NCBI RefSeq assembly: GCF_003334355.1
Contig: NZ_QOWP01000001.1
DNA: 64,000 nucleotides
DNA from: Escherichia coli
GTDB lineage: Bacteria > Pseudomonadota > Gammaproteobacteria > Enterobacterales > Enterobacteriaceae
Direction: 5' to 3' (one strand)
Shown here in pieces: positions 31,701-37,700 of this stretch (its first letter is position 1; every line of letters starts with the position of its first letter). Made by a program: the position numbers.

Positions 31701-34700
31701 GCCAGATCGATTTGCTTATACAGCGAGTCGAAGCGTTTACTCTCGATCACCGAGGAGAACGTCAGACAAACCTGTTCTGTATTCGCCGGACAGCTGTTAC
31801 TGGACGTTACCAGCGAAACCGCATTGCTTTTCTTGTCATCGGAGCCCGCCAGTTCTTGCGCGTCCTCAAGGCTAAACGACACTTTTTCAACCGCACGCAA
31901 GCTACGCGCAGCTTCTGACTGAGTGTTGAAGGTGGCAATTGTCGTGTTACCCGCCACGCAAGTAACGTCCTCGCCAGGTTTAAATGTAAAGCCATCGCTG
32001 GATTCACCATTACAGGTAGCACCAGTTACCCGCTGGCTTCCGCCCAGGGTCAGATAACCCGTTTTCGTAGGAACAGGTTCTGGCTCCGGTTCTGGTGTTG
32101 GTTCAGGATCAGGTATCGGTTCTGGCGTAGGCTCTGGGTCCGGCGTTGGCTCAGGCGTCGGCTCCGGGTTTGGTGTTGGATCAGGTTTCACTTCCGGCAA
32201 AGACCCTGTTCCAGAATCTACAGGCGGCGTATCGGAGGAAGATCCGGAACCACCGCCATCACAACCGGCTAACAGGGTTGCGCTCAAAATAGCCGCTAAA
32301 AGCGATTTCTTATATTTAAATTTCTTATTCATTAATAACGCAAGTGACAAAACAATGTTAAAAAATTCGTAACTGGGAGAAATAGTTTTATGCTTTATCT
32401 TCTCTAATAACTTCCTCCATTCTTAAGAAAACGACATCATTGATAGAAAACAGGTGAAATTTATAAGAATAACTCCTATACGATGTCTATCTGGCTATTT
32501 TTACGAAATTTCAACAAACAAAAAATTAACAACATTTCACAACGTAACTATATAAATTTGTTGGTAGTTTTAACGATTAAGATTGCAAAAGCAACAGATA
32601 GAACGGTGTTTGCTCATCAAGCGAACATAATTAATACAGACTTGTTTTGCGTGATAAAAAAATAGATGTTCTCACGCTCTTAATTATTTAGCAGGTTATC
32701 TGAACGCAAAACATTATTGCTGCATGGATAATAAAGCGAGAAATGATTTTCAATTAATAAGACAGAATAATGTAAATGAAGCCGGATGATATTAACGATC
32801 ATCCGGCTTTATTGATTTACGAGACTAACATCCCGGTAAACACATACGCCTGCAGCAGGGTGATAATGCCGATAACGCTGGCAAAAATCAGACTGTGCTT
32901 CACGGTGTAGCGGAACAGTTCAGATTCTCGGCCCACCATGCCCGTCGCGGCGCAGGCCACGGCGATAGATTGCGGGGAGATCATCTTGCCAGTTACGCCG
33001 CCGCTGGTGTTTGCTGCCACCAGCAGGGTGTCAGAGACGTTGATTTGCTGCGCCGTGGTCGATTGCAGTGAACCAAACAGGGCGTTAGAGGAGGTGTCCG
33101 AGCCGGTAAGGAATACGCCCAGCCAGCCGAGAAACGGTGAGAAGAACGGGAACATCACGCCTGTACCTGCCAGTACCAGCGCCAGCGTGGTGGACATGCC
33201 AGAATAGTTGGTGACGAAGGCGAACGCCAGCACCATGCCAATCGACAGTATCGGCCACTTCAAGCTAATTAGCGTTTCGGCAAAGACGCCAATACCTTTC
33301 TTGATCCCCACACCGAGGATGAAGATAGAGATAATCGCCGCAATAAAAATAGCGGTGCCGCCAGCCGAGAGGGGGTCGAATTTAAACACCGCATCCATTG
33401 GCGTTGGTTGGGCGACAATGGGTGCCGCTTTCAACACTTGTTGATGCAAATGAGGGATCTGGAAATTAATCACCAGTGAATAAAACGCGCCGCCCGGAGC
33501 AAATAACGCTTTAAACGGCTTCATGGTCCAGATGGTGACCAGCACCGTTAAGATTAAAAACGGTGACCACGCTCGAATGATTTGCCCCAGACTATATTCT
33601 GAAGGCACGGGACCGCCAGAAGATGGCTTATTTACCACCATCGCACCTGCGGATTGTCCCATGCTGATTGCCGTTTCGGTATTTTTCGGCCGCCAGACTT
33701 TAAGGAATAAAGCGAGTGAGACGATACTCACCAGCGCCGAAGTAATATCCGGCAGTTCCGGACCAATATAGTTAGAGGTAAAGAACTGAGTGACAGCGAA
33801 GCTTCCCCCAGCAACCAGCGCCGCTGGCCACGTCTCTTTCACCCCTTTCCAGCCGTCCATCATTGCTACCAGCCAGAACGGCACAAGAACCGACAGGAAC
33901 GGTAACTGACGTCCCGCCATTGCGCCAATGTGGAACGGATCGATTCCCGTTACCTGACCGGCGACCAGAATCGGCACGCCCAACGCACCAAACGCCACCG
34001 GCGCAGTATTGGCAATCAGACACAGCCCCGCCGCGTATAACGGTTTGAAGCCCAGGCCCACCAGCAGCGCACCGGTAATCGCCACCGGCGCACCAAAGCC
34101 AGCCGCTCCTTCCAGCAACGCACCAAAGGAGAAACCAATCAGTAACACCTGCAAACGCTGATCGTCGGTGATGGAGATAACCGAGCTGCGGATAATATCG
34201 AACTGCCCGCTGGCAACGGTTAATTTATACAGGAACACCGCCGCGACAATAATCCACGCTATTGGCCATAATCCATAAATAAAGCCATAGCCCGCAGCAG
34301 CAAATGCCATATCAATCGGCATTTTAAAGGCGAATATTGCAATCAGGATAGATAATATAAGGGTTATTGCTCCAGCGACATGTCCTTTCAGACGTAATAC
34401 CGCGAGTGCAACGAAGAAGAATATTATCGGGATCAGGGCGACCAGAGCGGATAGCCCCAGTCCTCCCATCGGCATATACATTTGGGTCCAGGTAACCATA
34501 TTGTTCAGTCTCTTATTATCTTTATATGCTTGATATACTTAAGGTTGTAATAAGCAAAAGAGGACTGAACTGTAAAATATAGGCGTTATACTTTACAGCA
34601 ACAGTACGCCGCTAACGCAATTGCTACCTCTGGCATAACAAGTATATCGGGTAAGGGTTTCTGTTCCGCACACGCAGACGCAGAGTATCGTTAAGATGTC

Positions 34701-37700
34701 CATATTGTTGTTTTAGGCCCGCTAGTAATGCGCTACGGGTATTTAATATTGTTAAACCCTGATAATCGCTCCGGTTATTTCCGGGATAAATGTACTACCG
34801 CAGTTACTATCATAGCCCCGACAATAAAACTTGCCGGGGCTTTTTTGACGCTATTAATGACTTTCTTTTTCGCGTAAACGCCAGGCGTGTAATAACGGTT
34901 CGGTATAGCCGTTTGGCTGTTTCACGCCGAGGAAGATTAAATCGCTGGCAGCTTTAAAAGCACACGAGTTAGCGAAATTCCCCGCCATCGGACGATAAGC
35001 CGGATCGCCAGCGTTTTGCTGATCAACCACTTTCGCCATATTCTCCAGCGACGCCTGCACCTGTTCTTTGGTCAGAATACCGTGACGTAACCAGTTGGCG
35101 ATATGCTGGCTGGAGATACGCAGCGTTGCGCGGTCTTCCATCAACGCCACATTGTGAATATCCGGCACTTTTGAACAACCAATCCCCTGCTCCACCCAGC
35201 GCACCACGTACCCCAGAATCCCCTGCACGTTGTTATCCAGCTCTTGTTGGATCTCTTGCGCCGACCAGTTAGCGTTTTCAGCAACCGGAATAGTCAGCAG
35301 ATCGTCCAGCAGCGGTTCAAATTCAGCATTGAACTCGGTCTGGGCAATGTTGGCTTGTACGCTCTGTACGTTGGTTTGGTGGTAGTGCAGCGCATGGAGC
35401 GTAGCAGCGGTTGGTGACGGAACCCAGGCTGTGTTTGCCCCGGCACGCAGTTGGTCGCCCTTCTGGCTGTACATGTCTGCCATCAGGTCCGGCATTGCCC
35501 ACATGCCTTTACCAATTTGCGCTTTACCGCGCAGCCCACAGAACAGACCGGAAAGCACGTTATTACGCTCGTAGGCTTTGATCCAAGGCGTCGATTTCAT
35601 CTGATTTTTACGCAGCATCGGGCCAGCTTCCATCACCGAATGCATTTCATCGCCGGTACGGTCGAGGAAACCGGTATTGATGAACGCCACGCGGTTGCGC
35701 GCCTGAGCGATACAGCTACGCAAGTTCAGCGAGGTCCGACGTTCTTCATCCATAATGCCCATTTTCAGGGTATTCGGTGCCATACCGAGCATTGTCTCAA
35801 TGCGGGTAAACAGTTTGTTGGCGAACGCCACTTCCTGCGGACCGTGCATTTTCGGTTTCACAATATAGACGCTGCCAGTGCGCGAGTTTTTCTGCACTTT
35901 TAAATCATAGAGGGCAATCGCGCCAGTCATGACGCCATCAAGAATGCCTTCCGGGATTTCATTGCCTTCGCTGTCCCAAATCACAGGAATGGTCATCAAA
36001 TGACCCACGTTGCGGATAAACAGCAGCGAGCGTCCGTGCAGAGAAATTTCAGAGCCATCGGCGGCGGTGTAATGACGATCGTCATTCAGTTTACGCACGA
36101 TTTGCCGACCGTTTTTCTCCATTTTCTCTTGCAGAGTCCCCTGCATCAGGCCCAGCAGGTTGCGGTACAGCAGGATTTTATCTTCCGCATCAACCGCCGC
36201 GACCGAATCTTCGCAGTCGAGAATGGTACTGATAGCAGCTTCGACGATAACATCGTTGATGTGCGCCGGATCGTCTTTGCCAATCCGCCCATTGGCATCG
36301 ATTTGCAGCTCAATATGCAGGCCGTTATTTTTCAGCAAAATGCAGGTCGGCGCAGCGGCATCGCCACGGTAACCGACAAACTGTGCTGGAGTACGTAACG
36401 TGGTTTCTTTACCATTTTTCAACTGGATGCGTAATTGTTTATCAACCACCTTAAACGCCACCACATCCTGATAGCTGCCGTTTTCCAGCGGTAGAGATTC
36501 ATCGAGGAAACGCCGAACCCAGGCGATAACCTGCTCACCGCGTTGCGGATCGTAGCCGCTGACCATCGCCCCTTCCTGCGGGATGATGTCGCTGCCGTAT
36601 AACGCATCGTACAGTGAGCCCCAGCGAGCGTTCGCCGCGTTCAGCGCGTAGCGGGCGTTCATTGCCGGAACCACCAGCTGCGGCCCCGCCTGGCTGGTGA
36701 TTTCGCTGTCAATGCCCGTGGTTTCCACCGTCACGCGCTCCGGTTGCGGCACCAGGTAGCCCAGTTCACGCAGGAAAGATTTATAGGCCGCTTTATCTTT
36801 TACCGGCCCCGGATTGCTGCGATGCCACTCATCAAGCGCTGCCTGAATGCGATCGCGTTCTGCCAGCAACTGACGATTTTCTGGTGCCAGATCATGAACG
36901 ATCTCATCAAAATTGCGCCAGAACGCCGCAGCGTCCAGCCCTGTTCCCGGTAAAACTTCTTCATCCACAAAACGTTTAAAATTGGCGTCAATGCGTAAAC
37001 GGCTCTGGGTTATGGTTTGACTCATTGTTTATCTCCTCGTTTTCGCTTATTTCGCCAACACCGCTGCTGCCGCTTTCGCGACCTGCGCATCCTGTGCTCC
37101 GGTTAAACCAGAAACGCCCACGGCACCAATAATTTGCCCATCCACAACAACCGGTACGCCGCCTTCCAGCGACGTTAATAACGGCGCAGTCACGAACGCG
37201 GTACGTCCGTTGTTCACCATCTCTTCATAGCCCTTAGTTTCACGACGCCCCAGCGCGGCGGTACGCGCTTTCTCCTGGGAGATATAAGCCGCAATCGGCG
37301 CGCAATCGTCCATGCGACTTAACGCCAGCAGATGACCGCCGTCATCGGCAACAGCAATGGAAACAGACCAGTTATTTTTCTGCGCCTCTTCCTGACCTGC
37401 GGCAATAATTGCACTCGCCATTTGCTGGCTAAGAATGACTTTAGTTTTCATTTTGTTATTCCTTTTCAAGGGCTTGTTCTACAATTTCAATCCAGTGACG
37501 CACAGAGGTACGACCGGCGCTCGCCAGATGCGTCTGGCAACCAATGTTGGCGGTGACGATCATTTCCGGTTTGCCGCTTTCCAGCGCATTCATTTTGTTA
37601 TCCCGCAGCTGGCGTGCCAGATCGGGATGCGTTAACGCATATGTTCCCGCTGAACCGCAGCACAGATGGCTGTCGGGAACGTCCGTTAAGGTAAATCCAA

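Follow-up and report, generated by a model that had tools for sequence, protein, structure and literature searches.

The RNA C0719 of E. coli is reportedly an array-defined transcript that lies between yghK/glcA and glcB, and is credited to Tjaden and colleagues in 2002. GadY, which Opdyke and colleagues are said to have described in 2004 and 2011, is reportedly a cis-antisense RNA to the gadX-gadW spacer, where RNase III-dependent processing stabilises gadX. In Vibrio anguillarum, RNA-beta is said to promote termination inside the fatDCBA-angRT operon. Intercistronic stem-loops that stabilise the 3' end of an upstream message are known from the malE-malF REP and from the hairpins of the Rhodobacter puf operon. 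Overlapping bidirectional terminators are reportedly widespread in E. coli.

The stem-loop in the glcB-glcA spacer

The window analysed here is a stretch of 64,000 nt of E. coli DNA, in which glcB and glcA flank a spacer of 354 nt (34500-34853). The literature treats glcA as a member of glcDEFGBA. Our coordinate map was validated by aligning the window to MG1655, where 5,501 nt align gap-free with one mismatch and none in the spacer. The two genes and the stem-loop between them are as follows.

34854-37025, minus strand: glcB (malate synthase G), an ORF placed identically in NC_000913.3; the upstream gene of the pair
32817-34499, minus strand: glcA (glycolate permease), from ORF and annotation; the downstream gene, whose 354-nt leader is the antisense target
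34814-34841, both strands: two-strand hairpin, GC-rich, from sequence, folds and conservation (two-sided changes, five lineages)
34841-34846, plus strand: T6 tract, the U-tail on the plus strand and the A6 located 5' of the stem on the glc mRNA

The hairpin is separated from the glcB stop codon by 12 nt. On the plus strand, an outer stem of 7 bp (A34814-T34841, G34815-C34840, C34816-G34839, C34817-G34838, C34818-G34837, C34819-G34836 and G34820-C34835) is joined through an A34821.C34834 mismatch to an inner helix of 3 bp (C34822-G34833, A34823-T34832 and A34824-T34831), which closes a TAAAAC loop at 34825-34830. The T6 tract is then followed by GACG. The plus-strand fold has an energy of -15.2 kcal/mol (z = -4.3 to -4.5), which was equalled by 0 of 200 shuffles. 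In the minus-strand RNA, a G.U pair replaces the A.C mismatch, and the stem is a perfect 11 bp with a folding energy of -21.1 kcal/mol (z = -5.8). There, A6 precedes the stem and (U)AUGAUAGUAA comes after it.

Terminator-like features were scored with the d-score formula of d'Aubenton-Carafa et al. 1990. The plus strand has a stable GC-rich stem-loop, of non-canonical architecture due to the A.C mismatch and the 14 nt enclosed, and a U-rich tract with a tail score of 3.8-4.3 and a d-score above 0. The glc-sense strand has the tail AUGAUAGUAACUGCG, with a tail score of 0.8 and d = -33. The initial annotation of this DNA had described a hairpin at 34814-34841, opposite in orientation to both flanking genes, with T6 on the plus strand only, and had held that the A6 before the stem and the AUGAUAGUAA after it do not make a terminator on the minus strand. 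Both the sequence and the scores agree with this description.

A generic terminator scan of the window did not call the hairpin at 34814-34841, because the plus-strand outer stem encloses 14 nt, which exceeds the 8-nt loop limit. In a looser scan of the window, which accepted any hairpin of -12 kcal/mol or lower directly adjoining T5 or longer, 24 sites were found, compared to 7.9 +/- 2.9 in shuffles. By our arithmetic, about 0.04 such sites are expected by chance per 354-nt spacer, counting both strands. The hairpin and T-run motif is by itself just modestly improbable. What lifts the hairpin above chance is its cross-genus conservation rather than the motif.

Two other candidate features were rejected. 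The hairpin is not a REP/BIME or other repeated extragenic palindrome: its sequence occurs at a median of 1 place per E. coli genome, and an Rfam search of 33800-35600 at E <= 1 returned nothing besides C0719 and no repeat family. The spacer also has a glc-sense ORF of 36 aa (34593-34703, MDILTILCVCVC...), which was rejected as coding because indels disrupt its frame (+2 in one E. coli strain, -4 in the lineage L087), because the Raoultella version ends at codon 13, and because the first codons match at the nucleotide level and not at the synonymous level. No LldR or PdhR sites are reported in the glcB-glcA spacer; their sites sit at the glcD/glcC promoter. When a Rho loading site was sought in the glc-sense spacer, the C/G ratio was 0.6-1.75, with no marked excess of C over G. 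The Rho table of Adams 2021 contains no glcA or glcB entry, in a condition where the operon was barely expressed.

Transcripts that end at the stem-loop

The spacer holds a transcript on the plus strand, and on the minus strand a 3' end of the glcB message maps near its glcB side.

34578-34799, plus strand: match to Rfam RF00117 (C0719 RNA), 298.2 bits, E = 5e-79, covering model positions 1-222 of 222
34547-34846, plus strand: ES170 transcript, 300 nt, which is C0719 lengthened at both ends (Rau et al. 2015)
34531-34542, plus strand: candidate promoter, an extended sigma-S-like -10 TGATATACTTAA, read as TGaTATACT and then TAA
34807-34814 with peak at 34810, minus strand: mapped 3' end of transcripts that contain glcB, from two independent datasets, Term-seq and TRS

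The C0719 match exceeds the Rfam gathering threshold of 50 bits and lies between glcA (yghK) and glcB, antisense to both. C0719 and ES170 were both reported on the "+" strand by directional small-RNA-seq (Rau et al. 2015). In that study, directional TruSeq Small RNA libraries were used, and transcript boundaries followed a coverage threshold of 100 or more reads in pooled data. ES170 is given as NC_000913.2 3119349-3119648 "+" (Rau et al. 2015, Additional file 2). After coordinate conversion, its 3' end falls on the last T of the T-tract, 34846, and the spacer (34500-34853) contains it completely, on the strand opposite to the glc mRNA. Its length of exactly 300 nt could reflect rounding or curation. 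The Rfam/EcoCyc ends of C0719 stop 15 nt short of the hairpin and begin 31 nt after the RNA-seq 5' end, and the terminator hairpin falls outside the Rfam model. The present NC_000913.3 RefSeq record has dropped C0719.

Expression of the plus-strand RNA is weak, and its mean values lie around 0.3-3 under most conditions (Rau et al. 2015). In fed-batch culture, C0719 rose by factors of 3.5 (transition phase) and 7.4 (stationary phase). A screen for biofilm and motility showed no phenotype when C0719 was overexpressed, and a transposon insertion at C0719 has been linked to an unrelated phenotype, group II intron retrohoming. The whole 300-nt RNA shows no excess of structure over shuffles (z = -0.75). 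We infer that its 3' end arises by intrinsic termination at the hairpin. The initial annotation had raised the possibility of a cis-antisense or small RNA on the plus strand and did not recognise it as the catalogued C0719. An antisense RNA ending at the hairpin is already catalogued as C0719/ES170 and is not new. It may act as a cis-antisense regulator of glc expression.

A search of the spacer for a plus-strand promoter, which the initial annotation had proposed, yielded the candidate at 34531-34542. It fits the sigma-S consensus KCTAYRCTTAA, as quoted in PMC5650638, at 10 of 11 positions, and it is the sole TGNTATACT and the sole TAYRCTTAA in the 64-kb window. The -10 motifs by themselves are not rarer than chance; they are informative solely through where they lie with respect to the ES170 5' end, which is 7-8 nt downstream of the candidate's -7 position. 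The supplementary tables of SMRT-Cappable-seq, Cappable-seq and ROSE contain no TSS entry at the locus. Judged by motif and position, 34531-34542 is probably the promoter of C0719/ES170 and may depend on sigma-S.

On the minus strand, Term-seq (Adams et al. 2021, supplementary file 1, LB 2.0) lists a 3' end at 3121590 "-", labelled "primary glcB, antisense C0719", and TRS 2023 lists 3121587-3121594 "-" in the class "Alternative primary in TU, glcB". The Term-seq position corresponds to 34810, so the glc-sense RNA ends just past the stem, 4 nt beyond it. This bears out the second suggestion of the initial annotation, that the hairpin is an element of the glcB 3' end. The two suggestions had been offered as alternatives, and both appear true. 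The antisense reading was to fall if no plus-strand reads ended near 34846 and glcB 3' ends mapped at the hairpin; the glcB end does map there, and the ES170 boundary points to a plus-strand end as well. Published strand-specific data support that plus-strand end in part: the coverage boundary of ES170 falls at 34846, and a plus-strand 3' end at 31216xx is absent from the Adams 2021 Term-seq and TRS 2023 tables. RNA 3' ends are reported on both strands, plus at 34846 and minus at 34810, as taken from different studies and growth conditions. A U-tract is found on one strand only, since the stem has a single homopolymeric flank.

Conservation and the reading of the locus

Across 4,416 E. coli genomes the spacer shows 97.8% identity or more, so that variation is too low for covariation statistics. 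Five lineages, including K-12-type E. coli, E. albertii, L087 and Raoultella, were compared; those for the spacer comparison were found by a GlcB protein search and contig look-ups. A contig scan with the GlcB C-terminus was of no use for the spacer, as it gave, among the matches listed, E. coli sequences and, at about 75% identity, relatives from Pseudomonas and Burkholderiales. E. coli, E. albertii, L087 and Raoultella all keep the stem, the T-tract and the -10 motif. T5-T7 is found in all lineages, despite diverged flanks in Raoultella, where about 37 nt are inserted between the glcB stop and the A/T tract. Both arms of the stem carry changes: L087 has U.G in place of G.U, and Raoultella has one C-G pair more. 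None of the five lineages has a U-tract on the glc-sense side. K-12-type E. coli, E. albertii and Raoultella have a positive d-score on the plus strand, whereas all five lineages score below zero on the glc-sense strand (-22 to -45). RF00117 also matches E. albertii (273 bits) and L087 (103 bits), and an RF00117 search in Raoultella found no C0719 match, so the body of C0719 is not detectably conserved there. TGnTATnCT is kept in all lineages compared. This motif sits in a block conserved upstream of glcA, and its conservation may serve glcA and not the antisense RNA.

The wobble pairs do not single out one strand. In K-12 and L087 the glc sense is favoured, with the L087 G.U to U.G change pairing in that sense only. 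In E. albertii the antisense strand is favoured, as it alone stays paired at the two stem changes (-19.4 vs -14.9 kcal/mol). Raoultella is neutral. This pattern would be compatible with use of the hairpin on both strands.

We consider it probable that one conserved stem-loop serves both strands, as a terminator on the plus strand and as a 3'-end element on the minus strand. The candidate sigma-S-like promoter would start an antisense RNA of about 300 nt (34547-34846), which would rise in transition and stationary phase, and the stem with U6 would be the Rho-independent terminator of C0719/ES170. This RNA would be complementary over its whole length to the spacer between glcB and glcA in the glcDEFGBA mRNA, without reaching as far as the ribosome-binding site of glcA. 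For the glc transcript, the U-less stem marks a discrete glcDEFGB 3' end at 34810. Blockage of 3'-to-5' exonucleases by the stem, after processing or termination further downstream, is the most likely mechanism, which means that the minus-strand end most likely comes from trimming and not from termination. A fraction of glc transcription would pass the stem into glcA.

The hairpin could instead act solely on the glc mRNA, as a stabiliser or terminator of the glcDEFGB 3' end, with C0719/ES170 as low-level, functionless pervasive antisense RNA halting at a stem flanked by Ts by chance. Nucleotide-resolution 3' ends are reported on the minus strand only, the K-12 stem is stronger on that strand (-21.1 vs -15.2 kcal/mol), and the L087 change pairs in the glc sense only. 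C0719 has also been dropped from RefSeq annotation, its expression is low, and its overexpression was without phenotype in the screen for biofilm and motility. However, an A-tract upstream of a stem that lacks a downstream U-tract has no known role, and this A/T tract is kept in five lineages despite diverged surroundings and the Raoultella insertion. The E. albertii stem changes, which pair only on the antisense strand, and the coincidence of the ES170 ends with a -10 element and a T-tract also point away from a purely glc-sense role, which we regard as unlikely.

Another possible explanation is that the end at 34810 reflects true termination at the U-less hairpin, aided by convergent antisense transcription or RNA pairing, so that the stem would be a bidirectional terminator or attenuator setting the glcB:glcA ratio. 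The discrete 3' end 4 nt past a stem of -21 kcal/mol and the convergence of the antisense RNA on the same stem would fit this explanation, with overlapping bidirectional terminators (Ju, Li and Liu 2019) and RNA-beta (Stork et al. 2007) as precedents. However, the lack of a glc-sense U-tract in every lineage, with the negative d-scores, argues against it, and an end 4 nt past the stem would, in our view and drawing on Dar and Sorek (2018), be expected from exonuclease trimming. Since glcA is counted in glcDEFGBA, substantial read-through must also occur. We hold true termination to be distinctly improbable.

Very improbable is a role on the plus strand alone, in which the hairpin keeps C0719 out of glcB and the minus-strand end is a passive decay intermediate with no effect on glc: canonical terminator anatomy is indeed restricted to the plus strand, and any stable stem would pause exonucleases, but the hairpin stays by glcB in strains that have lost glcA (through an IS5 or island insertion) and the C0719 promoter with it, the stem changes in K-12 and L087 speak for the glc-sense RNA, and the 34810 end is strong enough for two datasets to have called it.

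The reading in which the stem-loop serves both strands can be extended. Sigma-S-driven C0719/ES170 might uncouple glcA from glcDEFGB in stationary phase, with the shared hairpin turning antisense transcription into the 34810 end. Such uncoupling could proceed through a 300-nt spacer duplex and RNase III cleavage, through transcriptional collision, or through antisense-assisted termination at the U-less hairpin. We regard this extension as doubtful.

Comparison with known systems

C0719 (RF00117)/ES170 shares its locus, strand and sequence with the plus-strand RNA described here, and ES170 contains C0719. The significance of this work is chiefly housekeeping of E. coli annotation; the feature was already known. 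The C0719 boundaries in Rfam and EcoCyc go back to the 2002 arrays and seem to miss 31 nt at the 5' end and 47 nt at the 3' end, and the real C0719 most likely spans the distance from the candidate sigma-S-like promoter to the hairpin terminator. The same stem accounts for the Term-seq glcB 3' end too.

As in the bidirectional terminators of Ju, Li and Liu (2019), one stem here has 3' ends on both strands and convergent transcripts. Typical bidirectional terminators carry an A-tract and a U-tract, giving a U-tail on each strand, and separate convergent genes, whereas here the U-tail is on the plus strand only and an intra-operon antisense RNA takes the place of one of the genes. The glcB hairpin also resembles the malE-malF REP and the puf hairpins, in that a stem follows the upstream cistron, a 3' end lies at its base and a downstream gene belongs to the operon. 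It differs from the malE-malF REP as it is not a REP/BIME and is single-copy in E. coli genomes. The likeness to RNA-beta, as an analogy only, is that of an antisense RNA over an intra-operon boundary, with a hairpin that gives a shorter and more abundant upstream message.

GadY and C0719 are both antisense to the intercistronic spacer of an operon, are induced in stationary phase, and overlap the 3' end region of the upstream gene; the overlap of C0719/ES170 with the intercistronic region is of the GadY type. There is no sequence relationship between them, and the effect of GadY has reportedly been demonstrated, whereas one of C0719 on the glc mRNA would be a prediction. If the antisense RNA affects the glcB:glcA ratio, it would be the second E. 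coli cis-antisense RNA, after GadY, to shape expression within an operon, and it would provide a concrete terminator hairpin common to an mRNA and its own antisense RNA.

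Hairpin anatomy and conservation

The region around the glcB-glcA spacer (window 32220-37720) was aligned to NC_000913.3 3119000-3124500. The alignment was gapless, with one mismatch and none in the 354-nt spacer, and MG1655 coordinates were obtained locally as the window position plus 3,086,780. The hairpin lies exactly where the initial annotation had placed it, with the following anatomy.

Features of the glcB-glcA region
32817-34499, minus strand: glcA, open reading frame
34854-37025, minus strand: glcB, open reading frame
34814-34820 with 34835-34841, plus-strand numbering: outer stem of 7 bp, from sequence
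A34821.C34834, plus strand: A.C mismatch, from sequence
Inside the A34821.C34834 mismatch, plus strand: inner stem of 3 bp with loop TAAAAC, from sequence
34841-34846, plus strand: T6 tract after the stem, from sequence

Folding against shuffles gave -15.2 kcal/mol (z about -4.5) for the hairpin as plus-strand RNA and -21.1 kcal/mol (z = -5.8) as minus-strand RNA. The minus-strand fold is stronger because the A.C mismatch becomes a G.U pair there. Read on the minus strand, A6 comes before the stem and UAUGAUAGUAA comes after it, a sequence that is no U-tail. The U-tail is thus confined to the T6 side, as had been claimed.

A generic terminator scan made no call at the hairpin, since its plus-strand architecture exceeds the loop limit of the scan. 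With a looser scan, 24 hairpin-plus-T5 motifs were seen on both strands of the 64 kb, compared to about 8 by chance. At that chance level, one instance in a given spacer is only mildly improbable.

Spacers from E. coli variants, E. albertii, a relative with an 89%-identical GlcB (L087), and Raoultella planticola were aligned. The stem is kept in all of these lineages, with changes in both arms: where K-12 has a G.U pair, E. albertii and Raoultella have G-C and L087 has U.G, and insertions in both arms give Raoultella one additional C-G pair. A T5-T7 homopolymer is present on the plus-strand side in all lineages and is retained in Raoultella despite an insertion of about 37 nt between the tract and the glcB stop. 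None of the aligned lineages has a U-tract on the glc-sense (minus-strand) side. With a d'Aubenton-Carafa-type score, the plus strand is above 0 in three of the lineages (E. coli, E. albertii, Raoultella), and the glc sense lies at -22 to -45 in all of them. Since this pattern recurs across lineages, the predicted terminator polarity is a conserved property. A wobble-pair test of which strand is under selection was split, with K-12 and L087 pointing to the sense strand, E. albertii to the antisense strand, and Raoultella to neither. This is what use of both strands would predict, and it is not decisive.

The plus-strand RNA and its candidate promoter

A plus-strand RNA ending at the hairpin had been proposed, and such an RNA is already catalogued as C0719 and ES170. 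The Rfam match to C0719 (RF00117) covers 34578-34799 on the plus strand (298 bits) and stops 15 nt short of the hairpin; the Rfam ends derive from 2002 arrays. ES170 comes from small-RNA libraries that are directional because they were made by RNA adapter ligation, and its boundaries are de novo calls with a coverage cut-off (Rau et al. 2015). It was reported at NC_000913.2 3119349-3119648 on the '+' strand. Applying the v2 to v3 offset of 1,978 (C0719: 3119380 to 3121358) and the local conversion puts ES170 at window 34547-34846, with the final T of the T-tract as its last nucleotide. C0719 itself most likely runs from 34546/7 to 34846.

ES170 lies inside the spacer opposite the glc mRNA, in agreement with the suggested antisense relation to the glcA leader. 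Its complementarity runs through the whole spacer, from the glcB hairpin to 48 nt upstream of the glcA start codon, so the glcA ribosome-binding site is left unmasked by C0719. The 300-nt RNA as a whole has no unusual structure (z = -0.75); somewhat more structure is seen in the glc-sense leader (z = -2.3). The C0719 body is recognisable in E. albertii and L087 and not in Raoultella. C0719 rises by a factor of 3.5 in transition phase and of 7.4 in stationary phase (Rau et al. 2015). Its overexpression is reported to give no biofilm or motility phenotype, and a transposon insertion at the C0719 site affected group II intron retrohoming.

For a plus-strand promoter, which the initial annotation had advised looking for within 34500-34800, there is one candidate.

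34531-34539, plus strand: candidate extended -10 TGATATACT, from its sequence and its position relative to the ES170 5' end

The ES170 5' end is 7-8 nt downstream of this element. Together with the following TAA, it agrees with the sigma-S consensus KCTAYRCTTAA at 10 of 11 positions. This is the sole occurrence in the window and chance alone predicts one, so the weight of the motif comes from its position relative to the ES170 5' end. The rise of C0719 in transition and stationary phase would fit a sigma-S promoter, which is plausible for this RNA. TGnTATnCT is intact in all lineages aligned; this is ambiguous as promoter support, because the motif sits at the edge of a block conserved upstream of glcA.

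Distribution of the locus and neighboring elements

Two E. coli strains, PEC408 and 2013C-3277, have lost glcA independently, and the hairpin is still joined to glcB in both. In one of the two, an ISKpn26/IS5 insertion, next to which lies a Zorya defence gene, adjoins the hairpin at window ~34807. In the other, all sequence below window ~34616 has given way to a traT/cptA island, so that the putative C0719 promoter is gone and the terminator is kept. In E. albertii CP117620 (L086 5526-5789), glcA is an 87-aa fragment, and the spacer, C0719 (273 bits), and hairpin are intact. The hairpin region is absent from 882 of 5,426 complete E. coli genomes, in agreement with the C0719 lineage losses reported by Skippington and Ragan. 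GlcB homologues fall from 96-99% in E. coli and E. albertii to a group at 87-89%, then to Raoultella at 81% and Pseudomonas-like sequences at about 70%. Malate synthase G is rare among enterobacteria, and this distribution points to a patchy glc locus, possibly horizontally acquired.

Close to the ES170/C0719 5' end is a second inverted repeat, CTGTAAAATATAGGCGTTATACTTTACAG (34570-34598), which folds in the glc-sense RNA into a stem of about 13 bp located 70-100 nt before the glcA ATG. Both K-12 and L087 have G.U pairs in this stem that can form in the glc sense alone, a hint that the repeat may act in the glcA leader. The glc-sense spacer also holds a 36-codon ORF, MDILTILCVCVCGTETL..., at 34593-34703 on the minus strand. 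Conservation of its ATGGAC start and of the first ~8 codons extends to Raoultella. A peptide was rejected because indels break the frame in other strains and species, and the mid-spacer conservation (A1 columns ~255-316) looks like a nucleotide-level RNA or DNA element.

The window is not K-12 throughout (15584-32350). Compared to MG1655, about 8 kb more DNA separates tRNA-Phe (pheV, 15584-15658) from glcA, and a run of minus-strand ORFs (15808-26269), presumably an intact type II secretion cluster partly lost from K-12, fills the gap. A minus-strand yghJ/sslE homologue appears to be divided between an ORF of 926 aa (29570-32350) and one of 569 aa (27770-29479), compared to a single long yghJ CDS in NC_000913.3 (3114550-3119112), suggesting an interruption near 29480-29570. 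naRNA4, a REP-derived nucleoid-associated RNA (Rfam), matched at two places.

3683-3753: naRNA4 (RF02564), Rfam match
60038-60114, both strands: naRNA4 (RF02564), Rfam match; REP elements are palindromic, hence both strands

The glcB 3' end and probable use of the stem by both strands

The alternative raised initially, that the hairpin is a glcB 3'-end element, is backed by two datasets. Term-seq places a minus-strand 3' end 4 nt beyond the stem, at 3121590 '-' (window 34810); the entry is in the LB OD 2.0 sheet only and is classed as a primary glcB end and antisense to C0719 (Adams et al. 2021). Independently, the 2023 TRS dataset of 3' ends has 3121587-3121594 '-' as an 'alternative primary terminus in a transcription unit' of glcB. 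Both tables lack a plus-strand end at 31216xx, which speaks against a strong plus-strand terminator signal but would also be predicted from the low abundance of C0719. Two observations together were to count against the antisense reading: glcB 3' ends at the hairpin, which are found, and absence of plus-strand reads ending near 34846, which is contradicted by the ES170 coverage boundary there.

The data are best accounted for by a single stem that serves two users. On the plus strand, the stem carries every sequence feature expected of an intrinsic terminator, and a transcript boundary falls at its U-tract. For the glc mRNA, 34810 would be an exonuclease-resistant end of glcDEFGB messages, favored because there is no U-tail and the end is 4 nt past a -21 kcal/mol stem. 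These ends would follow either processing or diffuse termination within the untranslated spacer. No clear Rho-loading composition was seen in the spacer. The 34810 end would probably arise by trimming to the stem, and hairpin-dependent termination could account for it too. Residual read-through would be enough for expression of glcA, a gene that published work places in glcDEFGBA.

The initial observation is confirmed and its interpretation supported, and the C0719 terminator most likely also serves as the glcB 3' stem. The feature was already known in pieces, as the C0719/ES170 transcript and the Term-seq glcB end, and the contribution here is their synthesis. By analogy, C0719 could possibly act in operon processing as GadY does, or help to make the glcB 3' end in the manner of RNA-beta.
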